From Nitrosopumilaceae archaeon (lineage in GTDB: Archaea > Thermoproteota > Nitrososphaeria > Nitrososphaerales > Nitrosopumilaceae), in assembly GCA_965203465.1 (NCBI GenBank), contig CBDBCR010000001.1:512001-576000 (forward strand): a DNA stretch of 64,000 bases, in the 5' to 3' direction. Under the pieces are notes generated by a model. The model made no database searches and was not told the origin of the DNA. It saw only the letters and a program-made list of their open reading frames with translations. This document shows, one piece after another, positions 8,006 through 36,834 of this stretch. Every line of letters begins with the position of its first letter. Within the stretch, counting starts at the first letter, position 1. Made by a program: the position numbers and the translations under genes.

Positions 8006-8013
8006 TCCCGGCC

Positions 8014-9471
8014 CTACGCGGCCCCCGGATCCTCCACGCCGTAGTATTCCGAGGCGGCCGCAAAGACGCCCGCAGAGCCGCCCGAGCACCCCGAGACTAT
8101 GCGGGCCCTCCTCTCCAGGTCCGCGGCCGCGTCGCGTATCCCCAGGAACCGCGCGGCGCGCCCCAGGCGCAGGCTGCGGCGCGCAAGCTCGCCGGCCGAG
8201 CCGGGCAGCAGCGAATCCGAACCGGGATCGTAGCGGAACACCTCGCGCAGCGACGGGGCCCCGTCTCCGGGGACCACCTCCGAGACGCCCAGCACGCGCC
8301 TGGCCAGCCGGCCGCCGGGCAGCCGCGCCCTGCCGGCGTGCACGACGTAGTCTATGGCCGAGATCTGGGCACCGGGCACGCCCATGCCCTCGCCGCCGAG
8401 GCGGGCCAGCAGCTCGGCGGCCCCCGAGGCGTGCGCGCTCGAGGTGCAGCCGTGGCCGGTCAGGGCCACCTGGAAGAGCTGCCTCGCCTCCTCGCCGCGC
8501 ACCTCGCCGACTATGACCCAGTGCGGCTTTTTGCGCATGGCCGCCATGCCCAAGTCCATGATGCCCACGTCGTACTCGGACCTGACCAGCTGCGGGCTCT
8601 GGCGGGTCACCAGGTATTCGGCCCAAAAGTGCGGCAGCGAGAGCTCGCGCACCTCCTCGATGGCCAGCACGTGCCAGCGCGGGTTGGACAGGCAGGCCAG
8701 GGCGTTTATCAGCGTGGTCTTGCCCGCGCCGGTCTGGCCCACCACGAACGAAAATGCCCTCGCGTCGTTCATCAGCCAGACGTAGGCCGCCAGCAGCGGG
8801 CCGAACGTGCCGGCCCCCAGCAGGTCGGGCACCGCGTACGGCCGCTCGGGGAACTTGCGCACGGCCAGCGTGGAGCCGGGCCGCGAGACCTGGTCCCTCC
8901 ACGTTATGGTTATGCGGCTGTTGTCCGGCGCCGAGCAGCACAGCACGGGGCGCGCCGTGGTGGGCGCCTGGCCGTTGCGCTGCGACATCACCTGCAGCAG
9001 GCCGTCGAAGGATTCGCGCGTGGCGAACCGGACGTTGGTCTTTAGCATCTCGAATTCCTGAAAGTCGCGGTGTATCACCGCCGCCTCCCTGTCGTGCCTG
9101 GTGCATATGACGTCCTCCACGCGCGGATCCCTCATGGGCACGTCCAGCTCGCGGTACCCTTCGACGTCGCGCACCACATAGTACTCTACTGCTTCCCTCT
9201 CTTTGGCGTACTCTTCGTAGAGGCCAGCCTGCCTGGCTTCTGCCTCGAGCGATTCTATGACGGGGCGCGCCCCGCCGCCGCCCGAGTACGAATAGTAGAG
9301 GTTCTCCATGAGGCCGCGCCAGACCTTCTCTGCGCCCGAGCTGAGCCGCGGCTCGCAGACCAGGTACCTGCCCCCGCGCGTCACCCAGACCCTGGCCGGG
9401 CCCACCGAGTACGAGGCCGCTATCCGCGCCGGCTCGGCGGACTCTAGCCTGGCTATGGCGAACCCGCGCAC
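8014..9471 (-). CDS. Type II/IV secretion ATPase (TadA/VirB11/ArlI family)
   Basis: Walker A GQTGAGKTT, Asp box AIEEVREL, Walker B VIVGEVRGEEA, His box TGHGCTSSAHA. GTG at 9471 lies ~25 nt downstream of a CTTAAA box. Confidence 0.9.
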   Translation of the reverse strand: MRGFAIARLESAEPARIAASYSVGPARVWVTRGGRYLVCEPRLSSGAEKVWRGLMENLYYSYSGGGGARPVIESLEAEARQAGLYEEYAKEREAVEYYVVRDVEGYRELDVPMRDPRVEDVICTRHDREAAVIHRDFQEFEMLKTNVRFATRESFDGLLQVMSQRNGQAPTTARPVLCCSAPDNSRITITWRDQVSRPGSTLAVRKFPERPYAVPDLLGAGTFGPLLAAYVWLMNDARAFSFVVGQTGAGKTTLINALACLSNPRWHVLAIEEVRELSLPHFWAEYLVTRQSPQLVRSEYDVGIMDLGMAAMRKKPHWVIVGEVRGEEARQLFQVALTGHGCTSSAHASGAAELLARLGGEGMGVPGAQISAIDYVVHAGRARLPGGRLARRVLGVSEVVPGDGAPSLREVFRYDPGSDSLLPGSAGELARRSLRLGRAARFLGIRDAAADLERRARIVSGCSGGSAGVFAAASEYYGVEDPGAA

Positions 9472-9494
9472 GCAGACGCGTGCCGCGCGCGCCT

Positions 9495-9732
9495 TTAAGG
9501 GCGGGCCCGCTTTTTGCCGAACTCCAAGAGCCACTCGCGCGTCTCTTGGTCCAAGTCCTCCAGCCTAGTGATTCGGGGAGGCTCGTTGTCGATGAATATC
9601 CGCCTGGCCTCCTCCTCGGAGTAGCCGGTCCACTTTGTCGCGTAGTATATGGCCGTCTCCAAAATCTCCGCCTCGGGCGCGCTCCTTCCGCATATCTCGC
9701 GCGCGTTCTCTCATCCTGTCTCGGTATTCCAC
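9495..9732 (-). pseudogene. Small repeat protein, copy 1 (frameshifted by a 2-nt deletion)
   Basis: Reads GTG-EYRDRM, then ATGAGAGAAC where copies 2 and 3 have ATGATAGAGAAC. The shifted frame encodes ENAREICGRSAPEAEILETAIYYATKWTGYSEEEARRIFIDNEPP...REWLLEFGKK. Confidence 0.8.
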
Positions 9733-9817
9733 GCAGGTTTCCCGGCGAGCGCCAATTTATGGCTTGCATCCGCGCCGCAAAGGAGCACGTTCTGCGCGCC
9801 GGCAATCTGCACGACTT

Positions 9818-10090
9818 TCACGACGCGCCGGTTCTGGCGGGCTCAGCCTTGCGAGCCGCGGCCTGCTTTTTGTCAAACTCCAAGAGCCACTCGCGTGAAC
9901 TCGGGCTGAGATCGTCGAGCGTCACAATCTTCTCCGGCTCGTTGTCGATGAATATCCGCCTGGCCTCTTCCTCGGACAGGCCCGTCCACTTTGTCGCGTA
10001 GTATATCGCCTTCTCCAAGACTTCCGCCTCGGGCGCGCTTTCGCCGCATATCTCGCGCGCGTTCTCTATCATCCTCTCTCGGTACTCCAT
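9818..10090 (-). CDS. Small repeat protein, copy 2 (intact, ~90 aa); candidate immunity/antitoxin
   Basis: MEYRERMIENAREICGESAPEAEVLEKAIYYATKWTGLSEEEARRIFIDNEP...; CATATAAAA box ~25 nt upstream of ATG 10090; lies directly downstream of the ART-like gene. Confidence 0.8.
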   Translation of the reverse strand: MEYRERMIENAREICGESAPEAEVLEKAIYYATKWTGLSEEEARRIFIDNEPEKIVTLDDLSPSSREWLLEFDKKQAAARKAEPARTGAS

Positions 10091-10148
10091 GTGGGGGATT
10101 ACAGTCATGGTTTTATATGGTTTGTGATCGTGCACTCCGCAACCCCAG

Positions 10149-10907
10149 TCACAGGCGTATCAAGCGAACGCTCTCAGCGCGCGTTCTTGCCTCCAGCAGC
10201 CGGAGTACATTTCCATCGATCCGATCTACAAAGACCGCGATCGCCTCAAGCTCGGGGCCAGGCGCCATGACTGGAATCCGTGCCTCCCTTTCAGGCACTA
10301 GCGCAATCGCCATGGGGGTTCCAATCTTCTCGTCTGCGTCCAAATGCACGTGGCGGTATGTGTATTCTACCAGCGTGGCCCCTTCAACGCCGCGGATCGA
10401 GTCACCATTATACACAAGGAGGGCGTTTCTGAAATAGCGTTCGGCAGATCCAACGTCCCACGAGACTGCCTTGAACGGGTATTTTCCCATGTGGCCGCTA
10501 GTTCTAGTTTCTAATACGTCTAGCGCTTCTCTGACACTCGTTCCCCTAAACATGGCGGAGGCATTCCCATAGTCCCTCTTGTGCGCAGCGGCAACAGACG
10601 CCAAGTGCGCGTCCATCTCTTCCATGAGCTCTCTGCCGGCCGGCACGCGGGATACTTCCTCCCAGCTAGAGCCGTCATCGTCTGCCTCGCTGTAGCGCCC
10701 CAATATGCCCGCTTCCAGTTTTTTGGTTTTTTCGAGCCCCAAGTTTCTGACAGACTCGACATAGCCTGCGATCCGTAATTTGTGGACGCGCCGCCTCTCC
10801 CGCGTGCGCGCCTTTTCTCTATCAAACACGAGCCTGATCTCGTCGCGAGTTCCTCTGCGCCAAAAACTACCGCTGCCCGATCTGCTTCCGAACCCGTTCA
10901 CGTGCAC
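10149..10907 (-). CDS. Putative ADP-ribosyltransferase (R-S-E type) toxin/effector
   Basis: Motifs in ART order: MFRGTS (10542-10553), FKAVSWDVGSAERY (S at 10461-10463), PEREARI (ExE at 10284-10292). Lower GC than neighbours. TTTTAATTA box ~25 nt upstream of the GTG. Confidence 0.55.
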   Translation of the reverse strand: MHVNGFGSRSGSGSFWRRGTRDEIRLVFDREKARTRERRRVHKLRIAGYVESVRNLGLEKTKKLEAGILGRYSEADDDGSSWEEVSRVPAGRELMEEMDAHLASVAAAHKRDYGNASAMFRGTSVREALDVLETRTSGHMGKYPFKAVSWDVGSAERYFRNALLVYNGDSIRGVEGATLVEYTYRHVHLDADEKIGTPMAIALVPEREARIPVMAPGPELEAIAVFVDRIDGNVLRLLEARTRAESVRLIRL

Positions 10908-10941
10908 GATGCCCGCTCCGCACCGACGTAATTAAAACAAC

Positions 10942-11160
10942 CTACCCGTCCGGCTTTTTGTCGAACGACAAGAGCCACTCGCGCGACCTCGGGCTGAGAT
11001 CGTCTAGCGTCACGGGCCTTTGCGGCTCGTTGTCGATGAATATCCGCCTGGCCTCTTCCTCGGACAGGCCCGTCCACTTTGTCGCGTAGTATATGGCCGT
11101 CTCCAAAATCTCCGCCTCGGGCGCGCTTTCGACGCACACCTCACGCGCGTTCTCTATCAT
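10942..11160 (-). CDS. Small repeat protein, copy 3 (position of the paralogues' start codon reads GCG at 11178; next ATG at 11160)
   Basis: EYRERMIENAREVCVESAPEAEILETAIYYATKWTGLSEEEARRIFIDNEPQRPVTLDDLSPRSREWLLSFDKK; upstream promoter segment nearly identical to that of copy 1. Confidence 0.7.
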   Translation of the reverse strand: MIENAREVCVESAPEAEILETAIYYATKWTGLSEEEARRIFIDNEPQRPVTLDDLSPRSREWLLSFDKKPDG

Positions 11161-11195
11161 CCTTTCCCGGTACTCCGCGGAAGCTGCCGGCGCCC

Positions 11196-11224
11196 GCCAA
11201 TTTATCGCTTGCCGCCCCCTTAAA
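11196..11224. promoter_or_regulatory. Back-to-back TATA boxes for copy 3 (minus) and the VirB4-like gene (plus)
   Basis: ATAAAT on the minus strand at ~11199-11204 and CTTTAAA-like box on the plus strand at ~11218-11224, each ~25 nt from the expected start. Confidence 0.6.
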
Positions 11225-11245
11225 GCCGGCCCGCGCCCGCGGGCC

Positions 11246-13021
11246 GTGGAGTACACGGTCACGCCGGGCAACTTCGCCACCCTGCCCGAGGCCGAGCAGA
11301 GGAAGAAGGTCGGCGCGTTCCTGGAGCTGCTCAGGGCCATGACAAAGCCCGCGCGCATCACCCTGTCCCGCAAGGTGCTGCGCGTGCCGGTCGGCGGCAG
11401 CGAGACGGGCATGCCCGTGCTGCAGGTACGGATATCGAGCCCCGAGCCGCTCGGACGCGCGCTCGAATCGCTGCGCTACGAGTACGCCGAGAACCTGGGC
11501 TCGAGGGGGGCGCGGGCGGTGCGCGAGCACCTGGACTGCGTCGAGATAGAGGCCGGCGGCGCGCGGGCGTGGGCCAGGTGCCTCACGCTGGCCTCGGTCC
11601 CGCGCGAGCTGCCCTGGGGGTGGCTGGCCACGTCGGTCTTTCCGGCGTGCCACGAGGCATCCGTCTGGGTGGAGCCTGTCCCGCACGCCGAGGCGCTCTC
11701 GCGCGTGCGGCGCCGCCGCGACCTGGTGTACGAGGCCTCGCTGCGCTCGCGCGAATCGGCCGACGAGTACGCCGCGCTCGGGAGGGCCGAGGAGTCGATG
11801 CGCGCCAGCCGCTCCGGCCTGTACCGGTGCCGCGTGGTCTGCACGGCCGCCTCGCGCGAGCGGCGGGGCCTGAGGGGGGCCGTCCGGGCGCTGCGCGAGG
11901 CCGCCTCGGCCTCGGGGGCCGCCTTTGCCTGGCAGCGCGGCATGCAGGCGGCCACGCTGGGCGGGTGGGGCAAAAAGCTGGACTTTGACCTGGGCAGCAT
12001 GTCGTGCCTGTACCCGTTCGTCTCGGGCGACATGCTCGAGGTGCCCAACGGCCTGGCGCTGGGCATAAACGCGGACAGCGGCGCGCCGGTCATATTCGAC
12101 TTTGCGCGCCGCTCCAACTACAGCATGGCCATAATCGGCACGTCCGGCTCCGGAAAATCGTTCACCGCGAAGATGATCCTGCGCCGCCTGCTCTCAAAGC
12201 ACCCAGACAGCCTCTGCTTCGTGATCGACCCGATGGGCGAGTACCACCAGATATCGGCGGACTTGGGCCTCGAGGGGGTGCGCCTGACCGGCGGCGGCAG
12301 CCTGGGGCTGGACCCGTTCCGGCTGCTGGCCCCGGCCGACGCGGCGGACATACTGGGGCGCGTGACGCGCGCCCCCGAGGAGATAGTCAAGCAGTTCCGG
12401 CGCTTTTCGGACAGGGTCGGAAGCGTCGCGCAGCTGCACGCCTCGCTGGACCCGTCCTCGCGCAGGTGGCTCGACGATCTCGTCGAGGGCCCGCTCGCCG
12501 GCCTCATGCGCAGCGAGCCGCGCTTCCCCGACAGGCTGGTCATGTCGATGAGGAGGGCCGACGGCAAGCCCCACGAGGCGATGCTGCTGGTGCTCGCGCT
12601 GGCGCGCGTCTGGCGCCGCATAGAGGAGCTGCCGCAAAAGGCGCAGAAGATAGTCCTGCTCGACGAGGCCTGGATGCTCTTCAAGATGGAGGGGGCCGCG
12701 CGGTACGTCGAGCAGCTGGTGCGGATGGGCCGCAAGCGCAACGTGCTGTTTTTGTTCGTCTCGCAGAACGTCGGCGACGTGGCCGGCGGGGGAGGCGGCG
12801 CGCCGCGCATCATAGACAACATGGAGACCAAGATACTGATGAGCATGGAGGAGGACGCGGCCGACGAGTCGGCCCGGGTGCTGGGGCTGTCCGAAGAAGA
12901 GTGCTCGAGGCTAAAGTCGTTCGAGCCGGGCCACGCGATACTGATCACCAAAAAGCACCGGCTCCACGTGCGGCTCGAGCCGTCCGCCGAGGAGCTGGAG
13001 CTGTTCGACACGTCGCCATGA
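11246..13021 (+). CDS. VirB4/CedB-like (HerA-FtsK superfamily) ATPase
   Basis: 'LALGINADSGAPVIFD', Walker A GTSGSGKS, 'VIDPMGEY', 'LDPF', Walker B 'IVLLDEAW', 'RMGRKRN...SQN'. GTG 11246 follows a TATA box. Confidence 0.88.
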   Translation: MEYTVTPGNFATLPEAEQRKKVGAFLELLRAMTKPARITLSRKVLRVPVGGSETGMPVLQVRISSPEPLGRALESLRYEYAENLGSRGARAVREHLDCVEIEAGGARAWARCLTLASVPRELPWGWLATSVFPACHEASVWVEPVPHAEALSRVRRRRDLVYEASLRSRESADEYAALGRAEESMRASRSGLYRCRVVCTAASRERRGLRGAVRALREAASASGAAFAWQRGMQAATLGGWGKKLDFDLGSMSCLYPFVSGDMLEVPNGLALGINADSGAPVIFDFARRSNYSMAIIGTSGSGKSFTAKMILRRLLSKHPDSLCFVIDPMGEYHQISADLGLEGVRLTGGGSLGLDPFRLLAPADAADILGRVTRAPEEIVKQFRRFSDRVGSVAQLHASLDPSSRRWLDDLVEGPLAGLMRSEPRFPDRLVMSMRRADGKPHEAMLLVLALARVWRRIEELPQKAQKIVLLDEAWMLFKMEGAARYVEQLVRMGRKRNVLFLFVSQNVGDVAGGGGGAPRIIDNMETKILMSMEEDAADESARVLGLSEEECSRLKSFEPGHAILITKKHRLHVRLEPSAEELELFDTSP

Positions 13022-13437
13022 GGCGCGCCGTCCACGGCCTGCTCTCCGTGGCCATGCTGGCCGGCATGTCGCTGGCGCTGGCCGGCGCCGTCGCGGCGGT
13101 CATGTCCGACGCGTCCGACGTGGCCTCGCGCGAGGCGCGCTGCCAGGTCTGGCGCGCCGAAATCCACGCCACGTCCGACTCCACCTCGTACGCGGCCGTC
13201 TCGGCGGCAAACCTCGGGTCCGTCCCGTGGTCCTCGGCGTCTGCCAGCTTTGCCGGCGACGGCGGCGCGCCCGCGCGGCTGGCCGCGGAGGGGCCGGTGC
13301 CGGCCGGCGGCTCGTGGCGCGCGGCCGGGCCGGTCGCCGCGCAGGTCAGCCCCGGCGCCGAGTACCTGGTGCTCGTCTCGGCCTCGGCCGGGGACGGCTC
13401 CGAGGCGCTGTGCACGCGCCTGGCGCGCGCCAGGTAA
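13018..13437 (+). CDS. Archaeal pilin-like protein with class III signal peptide
   Basis: ATGA overlap with the VirB4-like gene; MRRA|VHGLLSVAMLAGMSLALAGAVAAVM hydrophobic N-terminus; 'VSAANLGS' and beta-rich C-terminus. Confidence 0.7.
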   Translation: MRRAVHGLLSVAMLAGMSLALAGAVAAVMSDASDVASREARCQVWRAEIHATSDSTSYAAVSAANLGSVPWSSASASFAGDGGAPARLAAEGPVPAGGSWRAAGPVAAQVSPGAEYLVLVSASAGDGSEALCTRLARAR

Positions 13438-13456
13438 GTAGTATTCAATGGGGGTA

Positions 13457-13509
13457 CCGGAATCGGCGAGGAGTTAAATGAATGGCATTTAAGCCGGCCG
13501 GAATCGGCG
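13457..13509. repeat. 12-bp direct repeat flanking a 7-bp inverted repeat
   Basis: CCGGAATCGGCG at 13457-13468 and 13498-13509, around TTAAATG-aatgg-CATTTAA at 13474-13492. Confidence 0.6.
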
Positions 13510-13575
13510 CACCAAAACGCGAAAACGGATTTTGTACAGAGCCTGCCTTAAATAACGCGCGCGGCGGGGCGCCGC

Positions 13576-13911
13576 GTGGAGCCGGTGAGCAGGTTTTGGG
13601 CGTGCTTTTTCGCCGCCTCGATCTTTGCGCTGCTCTGGACGCAAAAGATGAAAAAGACCAGGCGGTGGCTTGCGGTGTCGGCGCCGTTTTCGGCCGCGCC
13701 GTACTTGGTGATACTGGCAATGTCGTACCTCGAGCCCGGGTTTGCCGGCTTTGACGAGGCGCTGGCCGTGCTGCTTGCAAGCGTGGCGGTGTTCGTGTGG
13801 GTTCCGCACGTGGCCGTGGCGGTCTTGCTGATGTTGCGCTGGACGGCGCGCTACAACCTCGAAAACTTTGGCGCGCGCTCCAAAAAAGAGTGGAAGGCCG
13901 GCAGGCCCTGA
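13576..13911 (+). CDS. Small integral membrane protein (~3 TM)
   Basis: Three hydrophobic segments; TTAAATAA box ~25 nt upstream. Confidence 0.65.
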   Translation: MEPVSRFWACFFAASIFALLWTQKMKKTRRWLAVSAPFSAAPYLVILAMSYLEPGFAGFDEALAVLLASVAVFVWVPHVAVAVLLMLRWTARYNLENFGARSKKEWKAGRP

Positions 13912-13919
13912 TCTCGGCC

Positions 13920-14315
13920 TCAGCCGAACTCGAACATCTTGCCGCTCTCCGAGATCACGCGGACCGCCCCCGTCCCGTTGACGGCCAGCGTGCCGAGGCC
14001 GCCCGATTCTATGTAAGAGGCCGGCGCCCCGGCCTGGTCGGAGAGCGCGTAGGGGACGGCCGCCCCGTTCAGCACCACTCCGGAAACCGCCACGTCGCGC
14101 TCGCCTATCGACGACAGATAAACCGTGGTGGTTCCGTTGGCCGAATAAACCCACGTCTGGACCAGCAGCTCGCCGGCCCGGTTGCGCGAATCCTCCATCA
14201 TCTCCGAGACGCCCTGCGAGTGCGAGCCTATCTGGCGGCCCGATTCGGCCACGAGCGGGCCGAGCACCAGGGCCGCCACGCCGAACAGGGCCGCTGCCGC
14301 CATCACCTGGTTCAC
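13920..14315 (-). CDS. Pilin/ArlF-ArlG-like protein
   Basis: N-terminal hydrophobic helix, then 'RAGELL...VYLSSIGERDVAVSGVVLNG...VISESGKMFEF', typical of archaeal minor pilins. Confidence 0.6.
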   Translation of the reverse strand: MNQVMAAAALFGVAALVLGPLVAESGRQIGSHSQGVSEMMEDSRNRAGELLVQTWVYSANGTTTVYLSSIGERDVAVSGVVLNGAAVPYALSDQAGAPASYIESGGLGTLAVNGTGAVRVISESGKMFEFG

Positions 14316-14336
14316 GCATGAAGCGGCCCGGGCCCG

Positions 14337-14352
14337 TTAAAGGGCCCTTTAA
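14337..14352. promoter_or_regulatory. Perfect 16-bp palindrome forming a divergent promoter
   Basis: TTAAAGGGCCCTTTAA midway between the divergent starts at 14315 and 14374; AAGCGGCCCG repeated at 14321 and 14351. Confidence 0.65.
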
Positions 14353-14373
14353 GCGGCCCGCGCACCGACCCCG

Positions 14374-16053
14374 ATGCTCCACTGCCTGCTGCGGGCGGCA
14401 AGGCGCCGCCGCCGGGGATTCCTGTTCACGATGCCGCTCATGCTCGGCATGGGCGTCATCATGCTCGCCGCCATGGTTGCCATATCGCAGGTCTTCGTGA
14501 CCGTCGGCGGGCCGGCCGTCCCCGACCTGCTCTCGGACATGCCCACGCTCTTCGAGTACGAGGGGGGCAGGAGGGTGCCCGAGGGCCTGCCGCCCCTGTC
14601 GGGCCCGCCGGGCCCCGAGCTGGCAGAGAGCCACCCGTCGCTTGCCATGTACGGGCTGACCGTCCAGATAGCCTTCGGGATATTCGCGGCGCTGCTGATG
14701 CTGGCCGGCGTCTCGTACTTTTTCGAGGAGATGAGCCTGGTGCGGCCCGGCACGGCGCAGGCCATGGCCGCGCGCATGGCCGTGCTGGCCCCCCTGTACC
14801 TGGCCCTGCCGCTCGTCTGGGACACCGCGGCCCTGCTCATCGAATCCTCGTCCCTGTACCTGATGGATCCGTTCGGCGGCGACCCGCACGGCCGCGCCGC
14901 CCGGCTGTGGTGCATGATGGGGTCGGCAGCCTGCACGGTGGACGGGACCACCGTGAACCCCGTAGACGCGTTCGGCGAGATCGGCGCGTTCGACCGCGAA
15001 TCCGCGCTGAGCCTCGACTCGTGGAGCGGGGCCCTGCAGAGCCCGCTTGCCGGCGAGGGGTTCGCGGTCAACGTGCTGCTGGCCCTCTTCAAGGGGTTCG
15101 CGGTCATGTTCATGACGGCCATGATGTTCGTGCTCTCGGCGGTGCGCGTGGTGCTCACCGAGGTGGTCGTGGTTTCCTTTCCGCTCGTCACGGCCGTCGG
15201 CCTCATACCGTGGATAAACACGTCGGGCATCTCGGACATGTTCCAGCGCAACCTGGTGGGCCTCTCGCTGGCCCCGCTCATGTCTGCCGTGGTCCTGTCT
15301 GTAGGGATGTCGGCCATCGACTCCCAGCAGGTGCCGCCGCTGCGCGCTTGGTTCCAGATGCTCTCGGTGGGGTTCCTGGCCGTCTTCTTTCCGGTCATGC
15401 TCTCGCCGATGCTGGGCAACCTCTCCTCCAAGGTAGGCGAGATGGTCTCGACGTCGATAAGGTCGGCCACCTCGGCCGGCTCGGCGGGCCTGCAGGGGGC
15501 AGCGCGCGGGGCCGCGCGGGCCTCGGAGGGCCTGGAATCGGCTGCCGGGGGCGTGCCGTCCGCCCTCATGGGCTCGTCCGCTTCCGTCCCGCTGGGCGAG
15601 CGCGTGCGCGCGTACGCCGGGGCCGGCGCGGCGGGGATGCTGGGCGGCCTCGGCTCCGGCATCCTCTCCTCGTCGGCCGCGCGCCTCGGCGCCGGCGCGG
15701 CGGGGGCCTCGGCCGTGGCCTCGGCGGCCGACGGGAGGGCGCGCTCGGCGGGCCTCGGGGCCGGCGCGCGCGCCATGGCAGCGGCGGCCGCGCGCGACAT
15801 CGGGCCGGCGCTTCGGCCCGAGCCGCCGCGGGTGAGCGGGGCCACCCTGATGAACCCGGCCGTGCAGCTGGCCTCGCTCGAGGACGGCTCGGTCGATGCG
15901 GGCATGAGGCTGGCAGGCGACCCCGACGGGGGCGCGCGCCTAGCCCGCGCGTACTCGGGCCGCTCCAAGGTCTCGGCGGAGGAGGCGCGCGAGATGTCAA
16001 AGCTCATCGGCGCGAACCCGGCCGGCGCGGCCCGGCTCCTGGGCCGGAAATGA
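14374..16053 (+). CDS. VirB6/TrbL/CedA-like polytopic membrane protein
   Basis: Multiple TM helices, 'SAVRVVLTEVVVVSFPLVTAVGLIPW', and a long Gly/Ala-rich cytoplasmic tail as in TrbL/VirB6; near a VirB4-like gene. Confidence 0.65.
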   Translation: MLHCLLRAARRRRRGFLFTMPLMLGMGVIMLAAMVAISQVFVTVGGPAVPDLLSDMPTLFEYEGGRRVPEGLPPLSGPPGPELAESHPSLAMYGLTVQIAFGIFAALLMLAGVSYFFEEMSLVRPGTAQAMAARMAVLAPLYLALPLVWDTAALLIESSSLYLMDPFGGDPHGRAARLWCMMGSAACTVDGTTVNPVDAFGEIGAFDRESALSLDSWSGALQSPLAGEGFAVNVLLALFKGFAVMFMTAMMFVLSAVRVVLTEVVVVSFPLVTAVGLIPWINTSGISDMFQRNLVGLSLAPLMSAVVLSVGMSAIDSQQVPPLRAWFQMLSVGFLAVFFPVMLSPMLGNLSSKVGEMVSTSIRSATSAGSAGLQGAARGAARASEGLESAAGGVPSALMGSSASVPLGERVRAYAGAGAAGMLGGLGSGILSSSAARLGAGAAGASAVASAADGRARSAGLGAGARAMAAAAARDIGPALRPEPPRVSGATLMNPAVQLASLEDGSVDAGMRLAGDPDGGARLARAYSGRSKVSAEEAREMSKLIGANPAGAARLLGRK

Positions 16054-16340
16054 TATTCCTGCGCCCCGGCGAGAGGCTCGCCCTGAAAGCCCGGGTGCTC
16101 TCGCGGCACGGGCGCGGCGCGCTGTGCGTCACGGACAGGGCCGTGGCATGCGAGATAGACGGGCGCGGCCTGTTCCTCAACTTCGTGCCGCGCGGTTCCC
16201 TGCGCCCGCTCGAAAGGATGGGGCGCTCGCCGTCGGGCACGCGGCTGCGGCTGTCGTGGGAGGAGGGCGGCGCCGTTCACCGCTTCGAGTTCCGCGCCGC
16301 GGATCCGGGGCCGCTGCTCTCCGAGCTAGGCGGCCGGTAG
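16050..16340 (+). CDS. Small PH/GRAM-like domain protein
   Basis: ATGA overlap; 'LRPGERL...GALCVTDRAV...LRLSW...RFEFRAADP..LLSEL' fits a beta-sandwich plus C-terminal helix. Confidence 0.55.
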   Translation: MIFLRPGERLALKARVLSRHGRGALCVTDRAVACEIDGRGLFLNFVPRGSLRPLERMGRSPSGTRLRLSWEEGGAVHRFEFRAADPGPLLSELGGR

Positions 16341-16711
16341 GCCGGGCCGGATCGCGCCGGCGGACGGCGCGCGGCCAAGACGGCGGACCGCCTTGTCTGC
16401 CAGATCTGAGGTATGTTTTCCGATGGCGCCAAAATTGGCCCGCAGCACTCGGCGCTTTTCCTCGCCCGTCATGCCCTTCCCCGTCGCGGGCCACACGACG
16501 CGCATGACGCTTTCTACCGCCTCGCGTTCTAGCTCCCCGCGGATCTCTGGGCCTTCTATGGGCAGAGGCACGATGACGTCGACGAGCTCTTCGGATCTTT
16601 TTTCCACTCGACGGACTTTTTGTCGACGGCGGGGTCGCGCTTGACCGCCTTCAGCCTCGCGATCTCCCCATTCAAGCCTTCCACGGTACGGGAGGGTCGG
16701 GCCTTTTGCAC
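16326..16711 (-). pseudogene. Hypothetical protein split by a frameshift at an A6 run
   Basis: TTTTATAC box, GTG at 16711, MQKARPSRTVEGLNGEIARLKAVKRDPAVDKKSVEWKK; the coding-like sequence continues in another frame (RSEELVDVIVPLPIEGPEIRGELEREAVES...) after GGAAAAAAG at ~16597-16605. Confidence 0.5.
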
Positions 16712-16895
16712 GCCCCCGGGGCCGTTTTTGGGCGTATAAAAGATCTGGATCGGGGCAAAAACCGAGCATGCGCCTTGCCCCCCGCTGTCCGTACCGCGCG
16801 CCGGGCGGGGCCCGCCGTGCGCGGCTGCCCGAGCCGGCCGCCCCTTTTCGCAGGCTCGGCCAACGTTTATCAGCTCTGCGGGAGCGCGCGCGGCA

Positions 16896-17577
16896 TTGGG
16901 GCGCGACTTCATCGAGGCGCTGGGACGCCGAATACGAGCGCGGGCGGTACGCGGGAGAGCCGCCAGTAAAATTCACCGAAACGATACTGGAGGCGGTGGC
17001 CGGCTCGGCCGGCCTGTCGGGCGGCAGGGGCCTGTACGTGGGGTGCGGGAACGGGCGCGACTTCGCCCGGCTCGTATGCAGAGGGCTAAATCTAACGGGA
17101 ATCGATCCGTCGCCGGCGGCGATCGGGCAGCTTGCCGCGCGGTGCCCGTCGGCCGCCGGCCGCATGAAGTGCACCGACATGGAGAGCTTCGAGCCCGGCG
17201 CCCGGTTCGACTACCTCGTAGCCATACAGGTGTTCCAGCACGGGGACGCCGCTTCTGCGGCGCGGCATTTCGAGCGGGCCGCGCGGCTGCTCCGGCCCGG
17301 CGGCGCGCTGTTTTTGCGCGTAAACTCCGCGTCCACCGACGTCTATTTCGGCCACCGCGTAAAGGAGACGACGGCCGGCGGCAGCTCTACCGTCAGGTAC
17401 CTAGAGGGACCCAAGAGGGGCACCGACGTGCATTTCTTTTCCGGGCGGGATCTTGCGGGGCACCTACTGCGCGCCGGCTTCGAGCTTGAGGCCGGGCCCG
17501 ACGAGGACAGGTTGGCGCGCAGGCCGCCAAAGACCGGGACGTGGTCGCAGTGGGAGGCGGTGGCCAGCAAGGCGTGA
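16896..17577 (+). CDS. Class I SAM-dependent methyltransferase (start region probably frameshifted)
   Basis: Motif I 'LYVGCGNGR', 'GIDPSPAAI', 'FDYLVAIQVFQH', 'LLRPGGALF'. The TATA-supported TTG at 16896 is out of frame with 'WDAEY'. Confidence 0.75.
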
Positions 17578-17642
17578 TCGGCGCAGCGCCGATGCCGCGC
17601 GATCCGCCCGCCGGCGTTTCGCCGCCAATCCTGCCCGGCGCC

Positions 17643-17924
17643 CTAGGACCGGCCCGCACCGCCCGGGACGGGAGCGCGGCCCGCGCAGCCGGCCAGCAGC
17701 AGCTCGTGCAGCCTGCGCGCGCCGGGCGCCTCTACCGAGTACAGCACCAGCCGCCCGCCGATCTCGGCGTTGACCGTCAGGCGCCGCCGGCGCCTCTGCA
17801 CGCAGCGCACCGCCGAGTACGGCACCTCGCGGCAGCCGGCCCCGTGCTCTATGCGGAGCCTGTCGGCGCCCGCGTGCACCACGCAGGCGCGCCCGTTGAC
17901 CTCGGCCCTGAAGGGGGTATCCAC
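17643..17924 (-). CDS. Small PH-like domain protein
   Basis: MDTPFRAEVNGRACVVHAGADRLRIEHG...EVPYSAVRCV...LTV...LYSVEAPGARRLHELL; TTTTAC box ~25 nt upstream. Confidence 0.5.
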   Translation of the reverse strand: MDTPFRAEVNGRACVVHAGADRLRIEHGAGCREVPYSAVRCVQRRRRRLTVNAEIGGRLVLYSVEAPGARRLHELLLAGCAGRAPVPGGAGRS

Positions 17925-18043
17925 GACTGCCGCCGCCCGGTTCCGTAAAAGGGCCGGCCCCGCCCGGCCCCCCGGGGCCCCGCCTCGGGGTGCCCCCGCG
18001 GGGGGCCCCCGGCGCGCGCGTTTTTCCGCCGGCCATAAATAGG

Positions 18044-18064
18044 GGTACCGTACGGTACGGTACC
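18044..18064 (+). promoter_or_regulatory. GTAC-repeat palindromic operator-like site between the TATA box and the start of the TFB-like gene
   Basis: GGTACCGTACGGTACGGTACC (four GTAC at 5-nt period) directly after CATAAATA. Confidence 0.55.
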
Positions 18065-18065
18065 A

Positions 18066-18755
18066 TTGGCCGAGCCGTGCGCCCACCAGTCGCGCCTGAC
18101 CCGCACGCCCGACGGCGAGCTGGTCTGCCGGTGCGGCGTGGTCGTCTGCGAAAGGCTGCCCGACGAGGGGCCCGCGGAGCTGCCCGCGCGCGTCTCGCTG
18201 TACCACCGCGTGGAACTTGGCGGCAGCCAGACCGACGCAAAGAGGGCCGTCGGCAGGCGCGTGCACACGCACGCGCAGGTCTCGTCCGAATTCTCCAACA
18301 TCTGCTGCAAGCTGGGCATGCCCGAGTTCGCGCGGCTGCGGGCCTGGTCTGCCTACCACAAGCTGCGCAGCCGGACCGCCTACACGCGCGCAAAGTGCGC
18401 CATGTACGCCGTGTACGGGGCCTGCCGCGCGGCCGACTTTCCGGTCTCGGAGGAGAGCGTGCGCGAGGCGGTCCTGTCCGTCTTGTGCGTGCGCCGCGCG
18501 CCCACGATGCTCGGCGTGATATCAGAACTCCACGAGGACGCCGAGGCGCTCGGCCTGGATTCGGGCGGCCACTCGCCCTGGTTCTACCTCAACCTCGAGA
18601 TATCCTCGGCCCAGGGCTTCTTTTCGGACGACGGCGATTTCGACCGGTTCCGGGCCGCGGTCATGCGACTGTACCAGTCGCTGCGCGGCACCCACAGGAG
18701 CCGGGCGCGGCGGGCCGTCCAGTTCGCCCTGGACAGCATGGCGGTGATCCAGTGA
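18066..18755 (+). CDS. Short divergent transcription factor B (TFB/TFIIB) paralogue
   Basis: N-terminal Zn ribbon 'CAH...DGELVCRCGVV'; cyclin-like repeat 'FSNICCKLGMP...AMYAVYGACRAADFPVSEESV'; only 229 aa. Confidence 0.7.
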   Translation: MAEPCAHQSRLTRTPDGELVCRCGVVVCERLPDEGPAELPARVSLYHRVELGGSQTDAKRAVGRRVHTHAQVSSEFSNICCKLGMPEFARLRAWSAYHKLRSRTAYTRAKCAMYAVYGACRAADFPVSEESVREAVLSVLCVRRAPTMLGVISELHEDAEALGLDSGGHSPWFYLNLEISSAQGFFSDDGDFDRFRAAVMRLYQSLRGTHRSRARRAVQFALDSMAVIQ

Positions 18756-19816
18756 CGGAGAGGGTGCGGCTCTCGTCGGTCGGGCAGCTGCCCGCGCGCG
18801 CGAGGCACGTCTCGGAGAGGCTCGTCTCGGACGTGTCCAGGAATCCGGGCTCGGCCAGGCCGCTGCGCCTTGGCAGGGCCGGCGGCGCGCTGTACCCGCT
18901 CAACGACGACGAGACGGTCATGGGGCTGAGGCGCGCCAGAAAGGCCGAGGCGGCCGCGCACGTCTACGAGTACGGCTCGGTCCCCGAGCTGGTCGCCGCG
19001 CACGTAATGGAGAACACGCACCCCTCCTCGATAGACGCCCTGCTGATAGGCCCCCTGATGGGGTACCTTGCCGAGAGCGGCATGGGCGAGGCCGAGGCGC
19101 GCCGCAGGACGGGCCTGGAGCGGCGGCCCGAGCTGGCGGCGGCCGCGCGCGCGCCGGTCACCGACGAGGCGCGCAGGGTACTGCTGGACATGTGCCGCAG
19201 CTTCGCTGCCCGCCTGCACGATCCGGCCACGCCCCCATACGTGGCCGTGCAGCTGGGCAGGATCAGGCCCGAGCGCCAGGCGGCGGCCGCGCAGGCCCTG
19301 GTGGTGGCCTGCAGGATGACGATGAGGTCGGGCGCAAAGGCCTCGTGGCCCAGCGCCAACGGGGTCGAGCAGGTGCTGCGCGGCTTCGAGGGGGGCCGCC
19401 CGGCGCCGCCGGCGCGCGAGCGCGTCTGCGTGCCGGGCCCGGTGGGCGAGCTCAAGAAAAAGGGGCCGGCGCGCCCGGCCCCCGGGCGGGCGGCGGCCGG
19501 GGCGGAAAAGTACATCCGCGACGATCCAGACCTGCGGTACGTGCCGGCCAGCGGCTCGGATCTGTTGGTGAACAGGAGGACCGGCAGGGTGGCCGAGGTC
19601 TCGGAGGGCGGCTCTACGTACGTCGTCTCGGGGGACTTGGGCAGGCCGGTCCACTTTCTTCCCGACCACGTGCGCGAGTACCTGGGCGCCGACGGGGGCT
19701 CGGCCATACGGGTGACCCGGTACCCGTCGGCCGCGCGGGCCTCGCGCGCGCTGGCCAGGGCCGCCAAGAGCGGCGCCCGCGTGGTGGTGCTCAGCTCCTG
19801 CGCGCTCCCGCGATGA
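18752..19816 (+). CDS. Degenerate ParB/Srx-like N-terminal domain protein
   Basis: GTGA overlap; 'LVSDV..NPG..RPL.L...GALYPLNDDETVMGLR...AHV...ELVAAHVMEN' follows the ParB_N layout but lacks the GxRR motif. Confidence 0.45.
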   Translation: MTERVRLSSVGQLPARARHVSERLVSDVSRNPGSARPLRLGRAGGALYPLNDDETVMGLRRARKAEAAAHVYEYGSVPELVAAHVMENTHPSSIDALLIGPLMGYLAESGMGEAEARRRTGLERRPELAAAARAPVTDEARRVLLDMCRSFAARLHDPATPPYVAVQLGRIRPERQAAAAQALVVACRMTMRSGAKASWPSANGVEQVLRGFEGGRPAPPARERVCVPGPVGELKKKGPARPAPGRAAAGAEKYIRDDPDLRYVPASGSDLLVNRRTGRVAEVSEGGSTYVVSGDLGRPVHFLPDHVREYLGADGGSAIRVTRYPSAARASRALARAAKSGARVVVLSSCALPR

Positions 19817-20379
19817 CCGATTCCATGGCGCGCGCCCGCGGCGCGAGGCGCCGCCTCGCCTGCTCCTGGGCCGAGGCGTGGGTAGGGGCCGCGCTGCGCG
19901 GCACCTTTTCCAGCTCGGATCTTGCCGGCGGCCGGAGGGGGTACCGGGCAGCCTGCGTCCTGTCCCGCCTGGGCTACGCCGAGAGGCTGGGCCGGCGCTC
20001 GTCGGGGTGCAGGTACCGCGCCACGCTGCTGGGCAGGTGCATGGCCGCCGGCGCCCGCCTCGGCGTCGGGTTCGTGCCCCTGTGCGTGGCGGCCGAGGCG
20101 CGCGCCATGCACCTGATGCAGGACGAGTGCGGGGCCGACCGGGCGTACCCCGTGTACCTGCTGCAGGAGGCCCTCGAGGGGCTGTACTCTGCAAAGACGG
20201 TGCGCAACTCGGCGTCCGCGCTCTGCTCGGCGGGGATGGCCGAGCGCGTGCGCGGGGGGGCCCTGCGGCTCCTGACGGACGACTTTGGCGGGTTCGAGCC
20301 GGCGCTGGCCGAGCTCCACGAGTGGGTGGCCGGCGCGCGCGACCGGGCGGGCGCGCCGCGCCCGGGGGCGCGCCCGTGA
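19813..20379 (+). CDS. Hypothetical protein, probable tandem winged-helix
   Basis: ATGA overlap; 'LSRLGYAER...YRATLLG' and 'SAKTVRNSASALCSAGMAERV' resemble wHTH wings. Confidence 0.5.
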   Translation: MTDSMARARGARRRLACSWAEAWVGAALRGTFSSSDLAGGRRGYRAACVLSRLGYAERLGRRSSGCRYRATLLGRCMAAGARLGVGFVPLCVAAEARAMHLMQDECGADRAYPVYLLQEALEGLYSAKTVRNSASALCSAGMAERVRGGALRLLTDDFGGFEPALAELHEWVAGARDRAGAPRPGARP

Positions 20380-21020
20380 CGGAACTGCGGCTGGCAGCGG
20401 CCCTTGCGCTGCTGCTGGCGGCCTCGTGCTGGGACGCGCGCAGCCGCGAGGTGCCCGACTGGGCGTGGATGCTGGGCGGGGGCCTGGGGGCCGCCCTGTA
20501 CGCGCTGGACTGGGGGGACGTCGACGCGTTCTGGGTTTTTTCGATGGGCTCGGGGGCGCTGGTGTCCCTGTTCGCGTGGAGGCTCTTGCCGGTCGGCGGG
20601 GCCGACGTGCTGGCCGTCGTGTCTCTGTCGGTGCTCTGCCCCGCCTGGGGGCCGGTGCCGGTGCCGCCTTTCGTCTTCTTCGGGGGGCTGATATTGGAGC
20701 ACATGGGGGCGATGTGCCTCAACCTGCGCTACAACCTGGCCGACCTGGCGCGGGGAACCTCCCCGACGCGGGGCCTCGGCGGCTCTTTGTACGAGCGGGC
20801 CATGGCTTTCCTTTGCGCGCACCGGCGCAGGCCCGGCGAGCGGTTCACGTTCCGTGCAGAGTCGGGCGAGGGCGGCGAGAGGAGGATAGACCTGTCGGCG
20901 CCGCGGCCCGACTCGGAGTTCGAGCGGCGCGAGGGGGTATTGGTGAGCTGGGCCATGCCGGCCATGCCCTTTTTGTGCGCGGCGCTGGCCCTCGCGGCGC
21001 TTGTAGGCTCGCTGGCCTGA
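20376..21020 (+). CDS. Prepilin/preflagellin peptidase (A24 family)
   Basis: Catalytic Asp motifs 'WDARSREVPD' and 'GGADV'; C-terminal 'MPAMPFL'; multiple TMs. Confidence 0.88.
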   Translation: MTELRLAAALALLLAASCWDARSREVPDWAWMLGGGLGAALYALDWGDVDAFWVFSMGSGALVSLFAWRLLPVGGADVLAVVSLSVLCPAWGPVPVPPFVFFGGLILEHMGAMCLNLRYNLADLARGTSPTRGLGGSLYERAMAFLCAHRRRPGERFTFRAESGEGGERRIDLSAPRPDSEFERREGVLVSWAMPAMPFLCAALALAALVGSLA

Positions 21021-21023
21021 GCG

Positions 21024-21353
21024 CTAGAAAGTCCGGCACGGATCCTGCCAGTAGATGTGGTCTGTGAACACGCGTCTTCTGTCGATCCCTTTTCTGTCGA
21101 TCTCTTCGAGAACTTCCGGAAAGTCCTCGTGGCTGGCGCGGACTTTTTGATCGAGGACGGCTATGTACTTGCCGGCGTAGTCTTTTTTGAGCGCCTCGCG
21201 GTTGTCCGCCACCCAGTCCGCGTTGGCGCTGAATTCTGCAAGCTCGGCGCGCATCTTGTCCCAGTCTCTTGCGATCATCTTTTTTACCTGTTTTATGTGG
21301 GGGGAGGATGCCGCGTCGCCCACGTAAATGATGTCTGGTTCAGAGCCTGTCAT
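21024..21353 (-). CDS. DUF5678-like small protein
   Basis: 'NADWVADNREALKKDYAGKYIAVLDQKVRAS' signature; TTTTATT box upstream. Confidence 0.65.
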   Translation of the reverse strand: MTGSEPDIIYVGDAASSPHIKQVKKMIARDWDKMRAELAEFSANADWVADNREALKKDYAGKYIAVLDQKVRASHEDFPEVLEEIDRKGIDRRRVFTDHIYWQDPCRTF

Positions 21354-21584
21354 TGAGCACCGTGCCCACTTGCGCAGCGTCGAATAAAATCTCTTCTGGT
21401 TCCAAGAGGCGTGCGTACGAGCCTGTCCCGAATCCGGGAGGCACCGGCACGCGGGCCGGGTTAAAAGCGGGGCGCGCTTGTACGACGACCCTTCCGGGAC
21501 GCGGCCCCCCCTGCGGGGTGCATGCCGGGAGGGCGACTCGGCGCCGGGGGCGGATTTTAATACGGCCCGCCCGCGCGCGGGCGC

Positions 21585-21803
21585 ATGAGCGAGCCGGAGC
21601 TGTTGCCAGCAAAGTGCCCCGAATGCGGCAGGCGGAAGGGGGCCGAGATATTCTACGGGTACCCGGCACCCGACGCCTGGCCCCGGATAGAAAAGCTGGT
21701 CGAGGAGGGCAAGGCGGAGCTGGGAGGGTGCTGTGTGTCGGGTGAGGATCCAAAGTACAGGTGCGGCTCGTGCGGGCACGCGTGGGGCAGGGCGGAGCTC
21801 TAG
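21585..21803 (+). CDS. Small Zn-ribbon protein
   Basis: CPECG...IFYGYP...LGGCCV...YRCGSCGHAW; TTTTAATA box upstream. Confidence 0.75.
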   Translation: MSEPELLPAKCPECGRRKGAEIFYGYPAPDAWPRIEKLVEEGKAELGGCCVSGEDPKYRCGSCGHAWGRAEL

Positions 21804-21926
21804 TCCTGTATGCCGGCGTGCCCGGATACGATGAGGCTTTTTGAAACGCGCACGCAAGAACCACAAATGCCGCCCGGCCGGTAGTCGGTTTTGGCGGCGC
21901 GGCCCGGGATCGATCGTCTGTGGCGT

Positions 21927-23345: not shown

Positions 23346-23366
23346 TGTCCGGGGTCGCGATCGGTC

Positions 23367-24337: not shown

Positions 24338-24481
24338 GAGAGGGCCTTGGGCGGCTCTCTTAATAATCTTGCATCGGGATTGTACGCTTGCATTGACTCT
24401 TCCTGATGGCATGCGCCGAAAGGCGCGCGCGGCGGACCGCCTTTGGACTGATTTTTAAGCAAGTACCTGCGCGGTGCCTGC

Positions 24482-25312: not shown

Positions 25313-25522
25313 TTTGGAGCCGCGCAAGCCGGGTCGGACGGCCCGGCAAAGTAGCGGCGCCGGGGAGCTCGTGCGGGTATTTCTGCCGGCCGGGCCGGAA
25401 CCGCGGGGCAACTTTGGCCGCATAGAGCGGTGCAAAAAGGCGGGCATGCCGATCATGGCGTTTCTTAGACGCAAGATGGGGCGCGCGGCTAAACCGCGCC
25501 GTAATGTCGGGGGCCGCCGATC

Positions 25523-26254: not shown

Positions 26255-26486
26255 GCCTCGAGCGCACTAGAGCGCAATCTTTGCCCGCCGGGAATCCAGC
26301 TCCGCCCCGAAGCTCGGGCGCCCTTTTCGCACCGCGCGTCGGATCGTGCGGCACAAGCTGCGGCTGCCGGCCTTGCGCCGGCCTCGGGCAACCGCCGCTT
26401 GCCCCGCGCTCCCGGATCCGGCGCGCCAAACGAGCAAACTGTAGGCCTGGCAAGCTTATTACGAATGCGGCGCAGCGTCCCCACCC

Positions 26487-28328: not shown

Positions 28329-28541
28329 GTCCAAGCCATTCCGCTTCGCGAGGGCGAGCCGAAGCCCACGATCTGAAACGCACCATGATCGGATCGCGCA
28401 GTCCGGGGGTGCGCGGCAGGCCGGAAAAGGGGCGCCGAGGCGATTGTCCAGGCCGCAGGCAAGACATGCCCGAACCTATTCTGCCGGTCATGGAAGATTT
28501 CGCCCCCGCCTGTCTGATGCGTGGAGGGGAAGGCGAAATTT

Positions 28542-36832: not shown

Positions 36833-36834
36833 TA

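Follow-up and report, generated by a model that had tools for sequence, protein, structure and literature searches.

A probable transfer module of the thaumarchaeal ICE type in the genome of a GC-rich ammonia-oxidising archaeon

Abby et al. 2018 (PMC5797428) and, later, Krupovic et al. 2019 (PMC6563490) described integrative and conjugative elements (ICEs) of Thaumarchaeota. In the passages of the latter paper which set out their gene content, these elements carry VirB4 and, mostly, VirD4, together with VirB6, VirB3, TadC (listed as a common, not a universal part), FlaI, PilT, a prepilin peptidase and pilins; a TFIIB homologue is found in all of them, mostly immediately upstream of a ParB-like gene, this TFIIB-ParB coupling is termed specific to thaumarchaeal ICEs, and no relaxase is described. 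Two such elements, called ICE-1 and ICE-2, were described in Candidatus (Ca.) Nitrosocaldus cavascurensis, and in the section of PMC5797428 concerned ICE-2 is said to have no integrase and was read by the authors as an immobilised element which can be inherited vertically. The corresponding text of Beltran et al. 2023 (PMC9905601) presents Ced and Ted as domesticated type IV secretion systems (T4SS) and cites conjugative elements in Nitrososphaeria as already known. Here we compare with these systems a locus at positions 8014-21020 of a 64-kb stretch of DNA (the window; contig CBDBCR010000001.1, here C1, positions 512001-576000) from an ammonia-oxidising archaeon.

We consider it likely that this locus is the transfer (mating) module of an ICE-type element of the family just introduced, and that in this genome the module has probably been immobilised or rearranged. 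It is a new example of a kind of element already described and not a new system. The assignment to the ICE family was made because the parts list equals the published one, including the TFIIB-then-ParB pair and the lack of a relaxase. As in the elements NCAV2-E1/E2, NitEve-E6, NitGar-E3 and NitVie-E3, to the extent that their published accounts detail them, the locus encodes a VirB4/TrbE-like ATPase, a VirB6-like protein (a weak likeness), a FlaI ATPase, an A24 prepilin peptidase and pilins. Also as in them, the TFIIB homologue comes immediately before a ParB-like gene of the same operon, a relaxase is lacking, and genes of cargo and defence type adjoin the module. Unlike the elements in those accounts, the locus has no integrase, attachment (att) repeat or VirD4 gene, the genome has no TadC-like platform protein, the host is of 65-68% GC, and giant surface-protein genes interrupt the module. 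The locus is an ICE-type module, not shown to be a complete ICE. By the parts list given in those passages of PMC6563490, TFIIB-then-ParB included, its genes largely fall within described thaumarchaeal ICE modules, an outcome which an earlier reading of the window from its letters (the sequence-only reading) had named as one that would count against its own proposal of a compact Ups/Ced-like cell-contact system.

The operon at the right end of the module encodes, in order, the TFIIB-like, ParB-like, 188-aa and A24 proteins (18066-18755, 18752-19816, 19813-20379 and 20376-21020), with a 4-nt overlap at all three junctions, the first of which reads GTGA. As a single sequence the TFIIB-like protein reached only E 0.055-0.18, while a profile of five sequences matched 1pft (1.3e-4) and yeast TFIIB (3k7a_M, 3.9e-4, query 20-159) in the PDB, and Zn_Ribbon_TF was detected in four of the five family members. 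The ParB-like protein had no Pfam match on its own and a smaller profile of 7 sequences found nothing in the PDB; a 49-sequence profile drawn from 97 representatives matched sulfiredoxin (6.9e-8) and Helicobacter pylori ParB (4umk, 8.3e-8), and the structural model (pLDDT 90.6) matched Noc, ParB and KorB with E values of 6e-7 to 4e-5. The A24 peptidase was the sole PF01478 match in the genome. For the 188-aa protein no Pfam match was obtained up to E=5, and Atlas leads all scored below 0.9. In single-sequence Pfam and NCBIfam scans the TFIIB-like, ParB-like, VirB6-like, 188-aa and small proteins of the module gave nothing significant. The sequence-only reading had described this operon as TFB, ParB, winged helix and A24 peptidase; the overlaps and the TFIIB-like, ParB-like and A24 identities were confirmed, but no winged helix could be confirmed for the 188-aa protein.

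The remaining parts which that reading had named (a TadA/VirB11 ATPase, a VirB4-like ATPase translationally coupled to a class III pilin, and a second pilin-like gene divergent from a VirB6-like gene) were all recovered, and, as it had also stated, no integrase, coupling protein or relaxase was found in the window in the family scans made. The first is a FlaI-type ATPase with a Pfam T2SSE match (7.4e-21), a match to NCBIfam FlaI at 2.1e-68, yet of 231 bits (cut-off 550), and PDB matches to Sulfolobus acidocaldarius FlaI (4ii7, 2.5e-48) and CpaF (6e-26). A second ATPase of the T2SSE family opens contig C3 (C3:1365-1775, 658-aa frame, E 4.6e-12) and was too divergent to be matched by tblastn from the FlaI-like protein. 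The VirB4-like ATPase matched Pfam DUF87, the TraG P-loop and AAA_10, the NCBIfam VirB4-like CD1110 family (2e-24, 85.9 bits) and, as a profile, PDB VirB4 (4ag5, 2.1e-35); its start was placed at 11246 and not at 11093 since homologues span only 92% of the longer open reading frame (ORF). The pilin-like protein whose start overlaps the VirB4-like stop has a basic RRAVHG N-terminus followed by a hydrophobic helix and aligns with a set of pilin-like genes, in which Pfam Pilin_N matched two of eight (best 1.8e-4) and Arch_flagellin one of eight; on its own its only family match was UpsA (E=0.045). The second pilin-like gene, 13920-14315, is divergent from the VirB6-like gene, 14374-16053, for which 77 homologues were found, two of them with a source name, one being 'hypothetical protein [Nitrosopumilus sp.]'.

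The whole set recurs collinearly in the genome of a congener, G003, and for this reason we do not regard the arrangement as chance. Eleven orthologues of window genes were found there in the same order at 30-64% identity (VirB4 64%, FlaI 58%, VirB6-like 53%, A24 51%, TFIIB-like 47%, pilin-like 13920-14315 45%, 96-aa protein 42%, pilin-like 13018-13437 34%, 188-aa protein 34%, ParB-like 32%, 93-aa ORF 30%). A ParM/actin-like gene and a VirD4-like gene lie directly beside the A24 end of the G003 module, which is located at 2.76 Mb, while the G003 orthologues of the housekeeping genes that flank the locus in the window are at 1.30 and 0.27 Mb. In the G003 module (locus L095) ARAGORN predicted two tRNA genes, a tRNA-Asp (7120-7193) which separates the ParM-like gene from the A24 gene and a tRNA-Leu(AAG) (14710-14781) which separates the two pilin-like genes. 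Neither is matched in the window, and the tRNA-Asp could be where a separately integrated ParM/VirD4 cassette joins the module.

The VirB4-like ATPase has 58 database relatives, of which 6 clusters are at 85-90% identity, 21 at 58-65% and 20 at 30-46%. From species-representative genomes 80 VirB4-like loci were kept: 19 archaeal (25-38% identity; Nitrosopumilus, Nitrosarchaeum, Nitrosotalea, Nitrosotenuis, Nitrososphaera, Bathyarchaeia) and 61 bacterial (22-25%; Saccharibacteria, other Patescibacteria-type or unnamed bacteria). Among related genomes a VirB4 match was present in 13 of 41, in 8 of 24 of the same family and in all four congeners (at 29-65% identity). A quick maximum-likelihood tree of 53 rows, in which the window was joined by 22 of the 58 database matches and 30 of 90 VirB4 loci (no Ced or Ted sequences), placed the window and G003 in a 12-row clade (100 SH-aLRT) nested in a clade with Nitrosarchaeum and Nitrosopumilus (99% SH-aLRT), in Nitrososphaerota (97%), beside Bathyarchaeia; two congeners (G001 and G004) were on a distant branch. 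Across 27 VirB4-bearing archaeal loci, many of them on contigs shorter than 10 kb, FlaI was adjacent to VirB4 in 7, a VirB6-like protein was found in 10, and an adjacent TFIIB-like/ParB-like pair was found in 4, the TFIIB-like profile (not the ParB-like one) having been built from those same four loci. In G003, as noted, a VirD4-like gene adjoins the module, and in a Nitrosarchaeum metagenome-assembled genome (MAG; locus L023) a VirD4-like fragment lies about 9.4 kb from VirB4. The patchy distribution, the synteny with G003 in a different chromosomal context, the co-occurrence of module parts at other VirB4 loci, the insertion sequence (IS) and defence genes on the flanks and the VirD4-like fragment near VirB4 in L023 all favour the ICE reading.

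The module appears to be immobilised or rearranged because no integrase, att repeat or VirD4 gene stands beside it, giant genes split it, IS630-type transposases bracket the island, and VirD4-like genes occur in five cassettes elsewhere. Four further module genes lie upstream of the window (C1:503543-505441), and in G003 the same four genes directly adjoin the FlaI gene. In the present genome two giant genes (2168 and 2647 aa) separate them from it, with 8 bp between the 3' end of the second giant gene and the FlaI stop. Both are members of a family for which tblastn gave dozens of matches, on every one of the four contigs, with the C-terminal ~420 residues conserved at 58-72% identity. Giant-gene 3' ends also abut integrase-like genes at C1:670719/670763 and C3:403458/403387. 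On the left an IS110/IS630-type transposase ORF separates a housekeeping phosphoglucomutase gene from the pilin genes; on the right a cargo stretch ends in an IS630-like transposase with housekeeping genes beyond it. ICE-2 of Ca. N. cavascurensis, as PMC5797428 presents it in the section concerned, is likewise a conjugation module of an ammonia oxidiser which lacks its own integrase and encodes a divergent TFIIB, but unlike our locus it keeps att repeats in a tRNA gene and a VirD4 gene within the element.

Several observations weigh against the ICE reading. An integrase is missing from the locus, and the four PF00589 matches in the genome are sub-threshold, lie more than 140 kb from the locus or on another contig, and are all cassette integrase-like genes. 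No VirD4 gene is present inside the island. The TadC/T2SSF platform, whose absence had also been pointed out from the window, gave no PF00482 match in the whole genome, which is 96.9% complete (a very divergent form is possible). No direct repeat longer than 17 bp was found between the two flanks, so that the ends and mobility of the element are not shown, and the window has a single tRNA gene, which lies 39 kb downstream of the module. The phosphoglucomutase and acetyl-CoA synthetase genes which flank the locus were neighbours in none of five relatives searched for an empty site. Third-position GC (GC3) of the module genes is 0.83-0.96, as high as in housekeeping genes (0.88-0.89) or higher, which fits long residence or transfer among similar hosts only; most cargo genes are at 0.64-0.82, with 0.73-0.82 for most genes of the stretch 21024-36790. 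The assignment of 14374-16053 as VirB6-like is weak but consistent: the protein had no Pfam match, a sequence profile of its family gave no meaningful match in the PDB, and the AlphaFold model is of medium confidence (pLDDT 63), while the best seven Foldseek matches in the PDB were all R388 TrwI/VirB6 (E 0.033-0.77, TM 0.33-0.51). The likeness to the named ICEs is one of described gene sets in the published accounts, none of these elements being among the loci returned. Finally, the arrangement appears to be stable in natural populations, because near-identical copies were found across six studies and both junctions were bridged. A 3.2-kb VirB4-pilin stretch was present in at least 16 runs of 6 studies (at least half of its words in 12), the run labels including sponge and marine metagenomes with no RNA run among those listed; contigs of four runs aligned to 6000-24000 cover the module at 85-100% identity, and the junctions of the giant gene with FlaI and of A24 with DUF5678 were bridged by contigs of runs X5 and X4, respectively.

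VirD4-like genes were instead found elsewhere in the genome, in five cassettes (Table 1) which each encode three proteins, one integrase-like (421 aa), one ParM/actin-like (276 aa) and the third a VirD4/TraG-like ATPase (1033 aa). The ATPase matched TrwB_AAD_bind (1.3e-5, 24.8 bits, cut-off 20.5) and CD1115 (5.8e-6), the ParM-like protein matched MreB_Mbl (6.1e-9) and ALP_N (6.9e-8), and the VirD4-like copies are 67-97% identical. The 421-aa protein had no Pfam or NCBIfam family at E<=0.01 and its best PDB match was XerC-like (4a8e, E=0.81); a 17-bit PF00589 match and an HxxR...GH...Y pattern read by eye point to an integrase-like, putative recombinase. Integrase fragments also occur at C3:402947-403387 and C3:102444-102782. 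The cassette copies have conserved sequence in common upstream of the integrase-like start, and a search at the ends of two cassettes detected no flanking repeats of at least 13 bp. PF03432 and PF03389 relaxases had no match in the genome. A doubtful but attractive extension of the ICE reading is that the immobilised machine, the lineage's only pilus/T4SS apparatus, serves the five cassettes in trans, each bringing its own coupling ATPase. Such an arrangement would parallel, in archaea, the integrative mobilisable elements of bacteria, and might also provide a route of chromosomal DNA exchange in a host-associated population.

From the gene identities, order, overlaps and distribution observed here, each functional step of an ICE-type transfer module can be proposed by homology. 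The short TFIIB-like factor would redirect the host RNA polymerase to promoters of the element. The A24 peptidase would trim the class-III leaders of the pilin-like proteins, and the FlaI-type ATPase would assemble the trimmed proteins into a type IV pilus for drawing cells towards each other. A DNA-translocation channel would be formed by the VirB4-like ATPase and the VirB6-like membrane protein; their partners are probably a small two-helix VirB2-like candidate and further membrane proteins, the genes of which lie 7-8.5 kb upstream of the window. A VirD4-like coupling ATPase would deliver DNA to the channel and the ParB-like protein would mark or partition the element DNA, with no relaxase involved, as in other archaeal conjugative elements.

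An alternative reading is that the locus is a domesticated host system, an ICE-derived T4SS and pilus fixed in the chromosome which exchanges or imports chromosomal DNA within the population. Controlled by a TFIIB-like regulator of its own, such a system would be a functional analogue of Ced or Ted with Ups, and it would not be without precedent. Like Ced of Sulfolobales and Ted of Thermoproteales with Ups, the locus has a VirB4-like ATPase, a VirB6-like channel, possibly a VirB2-like pilin and no relaxase, and a pilus-mediated contact step is likely (PMC9905601, as far as its text covers these systems). The lack of an integrase, att repeat or VirD4 gene at the locus, a GC3 that is host-like or higher, the intact state of every module ORF, the genome's only A24 peptidase and the stability of the arrangement, both junctions included, across runs of six studies are all compatible with domestication. 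However, the distribution is patchy (13 of 41 genomes) with several unrelated VirB4 lineages inside one genus, in contrast to the lineage-wide conservation of the chromosomal, DNA-damage-induced Ced system; the chromosomal context differs in G003, and IS elements and defence cargo are found on the flanks. The CedB model (NF041017) scored 27.8 bits (cut-off 700) and the UpsA model 13.9 bits (cut-off 130), both far below cut-off, the VirB4-like ATPase scored higher with the CD1110 model than with CedB, and no UpsF (TadC/T2SSF) is present in the genome. With TFB3 of Sulfolobales, a truncated zinc-ribbon TFB which works alongside a full-length TFB, the comparison covered TFIIB-family likeness and length (229 aa, against 309-409 aa for the host TFB frames). 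An operon pairing TFIIB with ParB, and partners of the VirD4 type, are characteristic of ICEs, the parts of the published accounts drawn on here describe no type IV pilus kit within a Ced or Ted locus, and the five VirD4-like cassettes with integrase-like genes suggest that the substrate is mobile DNA and not the chromosome. In addition, the integrase-less, immobilised ICE is already a category in the relevant section of PMC5797428. The Ups/Ced/TFB3-equivalent interpretation of the sequence-only reading is for these reasons not supported as a new system. Its second suggestion, a domesticated conjugative element, fared better in part: a conjugative origin is favoured, and the absence of integrase and att repeats and the host-like composition agree with it, while the domesticated state itself we judge to be unlikely.

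The locus could also be the decaying remnant of an ICE after IS-mediated rearrangement, transferring nothing any more. The split by two giant genes and a low-GC insert, the IS630-type transposases that bracket the module, and the lack of an integrase or VirD4 gene at the locus and of TadC are as expected of such a remnant. Against this, the conserved genes have no frameshift or internal stop, the 4-nt overlaps are kept, and intact orthologues occur at 32-64% identity in G003 and 67-94% in other contigs, which implies purifying selection, and we regard decay as very improbable. Least credible of all is an apparatus for adhesion or protein delivery in host-associated life, consisting of pilus, channel and giant Ig-like surface proteins, since the abutment of giant Big_5 genes on the FlaI gene and the presence of the locus in sponge-labelled runs are set against the dozens of giant-gene matches genome-wide, the absence of giant genes from the G003 module, homologous modules in MAGs of free-living-type Nitrosopumilus, Nitrosotalea and Nitrososphaera, and ParB-like and VirD4-like partners which point to DNA cargo.

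The ICE-type module also resembles T4SS of monoderm-type bacteria, in that the best NCBIfam models were the Clostridioides difficile families CD1110 (VirB4-like) and CD1115 (VirD4-like), and the VirB4 proteins of Saccharibacteria were its next relatives after archaea, at 23-25% identity (Patescibacteria T4SS, PMC12102498, in the part of that paper dealing with them). Unlike those systems, it scored far below the CD1110 and CD1115 family cut-offs, no relaxase, VirB8-type or cell-wall hydrolase parts were seen, and the pilus kit and TFIIB factor are archaeal.

Table 1. Features of the module, its flanks and the related cassettes. Plain coordinates are window positions; those with a prefix are contig positions.
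Feature	Position	Strand	Remarks
FlaI/ArlI-type type IV filament assembly ATPase	8014-9534	-	start may be 9471; Pfam, NCBIfam, PDB
Low-GC variable insert between ATPase genes	9495-11245	-	outside conserved module
VirB4-like T4SS ATPase	11246-13021	+	Pfam, NCBIfam, PDB profile; one copy in genome
Pilin-like protein, class-III-type N-terminus, 139 aa	13018-13437	+	start overlaps VirB4-like stop by 4 nt (ATGA)
111-aa protein, two hydrophobic segments	13576-13911	+	gene call
Second pilin-like protein	13920-14315	-	N-terminal hydrophobic helix at once, no basic leader; aligns with other pilin-like genes
VirB6-like polytopic membrane protein	14374-16053	+	7 hydrophobic segments, long Ala/Gly-rich tail
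96-aa protein	16050-16340	+	overlaps VirB6-like stop (ATGA); conserved in G003
S-adenosylmethionine (SAM)-dependent methyltransferase	16768-17577	+	start may be 16996; Methyltransf_23 3.7e-14
93-aa ORF	17643-17924	-	weakly conserved in G003
Short TFIIB/TFB-like protein, 229 aa	18066-18755	+	zinc ribbon and first cyclin repeat; profile vs PDB
ParB-like protein	18752-19816	+	ParB/sulfiredoxin N-domain, helical DNA-binding part, extra C-terminal domain
188-aa Cys/Arg-rich protein	19813-20379	+	orthologue in G003
A24 prepilin-type aspartic peptidase	20376-21020	+	Peptidase_A24 7.2e-6, 26.8 bits (cut-off 26.5)
Upstream class-III pilin	within C1:503543-505441		Pilin_N 1.8e-4
Upstream 235-aa and 123-aa membrane proteins	within C1:503543-505441
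Upstream 97-aa two-helix protein	within C1:503543-505441		nearest annotated Atlas clusters T4SS_pilin/TrbC
Tandem giant gene, 2168 aa	C1:505792-512298		Big_5 Ig-like domain
Tandem giant gene, 2647 aa	62-8005	+	Big_5 Ig-like domain
Lower-GC cargo/defence stretch, ~16 kb	21024-36790		ends in IS630-like transposase
IS630-like transposase	35742-36790		right end of cargo; housekeeping genes beyond
Integrase-like/ParM-like/VirD4-like cassette	C1:670763-676570
Integrase-like/ParM-like/VirD4-like cassette	C3:331561-338286
Integrase-like/ParM-like/VirD4-like cassette	C3:923425-930857
Integrase-like/ParM-like/VirD4-like cassette	C3:981591-988127
Integrase-like/ParM-like/VirD4-like cassette	C1:211769-218114

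The low-GC insert between the ATPase genes (GC 0.59, GC3 0.64-0.82) contains three small paralogous genes (9495-9662, 9818-10135 and 10942-~11200) and a 252-aa ORF (10149-10907). The small genes show 74-88% paralogy and a common motif, AIYYATKWTGLSEEEARRIFIDNEP; a fourth copy is at C1:302621-302881 (the insert paralogues span 9495-11412), and none of the insert proteins had a family match in the Pfam and NCBIfam scans. The insert is absent between FlaI and VirB4 in G003, and we call it variable because a metagenome contig of run X13 joins 10089 to 11189, bypassing 10090-11188. The methyltransferase gene had no tblastn match in the G003 module locus and is probably a local addition on that account. 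The 111-aa protein had no tblastn match in G003 or any other locus compared. A 93-aa ORF on the minus strand within the module (16326-16607) is one of a small family; the genome has 9 further matches to it, and three of these are clustered at C1:368619-370703. Of the upstream genes, the 97-aa protein is a VirB2-like candidate, at an Atlas score of 0.83-0.85 which we treat as a lead only.

The left-flank transposase ORF (C1:501230-502774, 514 aa) consists of an IS110 DEDD N-domain fused to an IS630-type helix-turn-helix (HTH) and DDE_3. Domains found in the cargo stretch were DUF5678, HNH, GmrSD_N, ParB_N with HTH_ParB, AIPR, a matrixin-like 857-aa protein, HNH_repeat and an AbiEii/AbiEi pair. 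The cargo HNH endonuclease has 8 further paralogous places in the genome, and a 763-aa cargo ORF (30994-33285) has host-like GC3 and no family match. Seven other copies of the IS630-type element (35600-36900) were found in the genome, six of them near full-length, with 89-99% identity at the DNA level, and a partial one with 84%.

The host genome comprises 2.26 Mb in four contigs of 63-67% GC each; host GC overall is about 65-68%, and the window itself ranges from 56 to 75%. An archaeal small-subunit (SSU) rRNA gene (1442 bits), three TFIIB-family genes (host TFB frames of 309-409 aa) and archaeal amoA (E 1.9e-115) were found, and taken together they identify the host as an ammonia-oxidising thaumarchaeon that is unusually GC-rich, in agreement with what had been surmised from the window. 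A haloarchaeon or a bacterium, the first guess from 68% GC, was ruled out by the archaeal SSU rRNA and TFIIB genes, a non-acidic proteome and amoA. Since the raw ORF list is mostly noise at 68% GC (126 ORFs in 20 kb), genes were called by our own codon-bias procedure, from third-position GC and a codon model trained on long ORFs.

As it stands this is a result at the level of annotation and not a new mechanism. It adds to the published thaumarchaeal ICE family a case from a high-GC ammonia oxidiser whose DNA occurs in sponge- and marine-labelled metagenomes, and the state of the element, a transfer machine which is intact and compositionally at home but stands apart from any integrase and from its coupling ATPase, with five cassettes bearing such an ATPase elsewhere, may itself be informative. 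If the cassettes do use this machine in trans, the genome would offer a natural system in which to learn what archaeal conjugation moves and by what means it manages without a relaxase.

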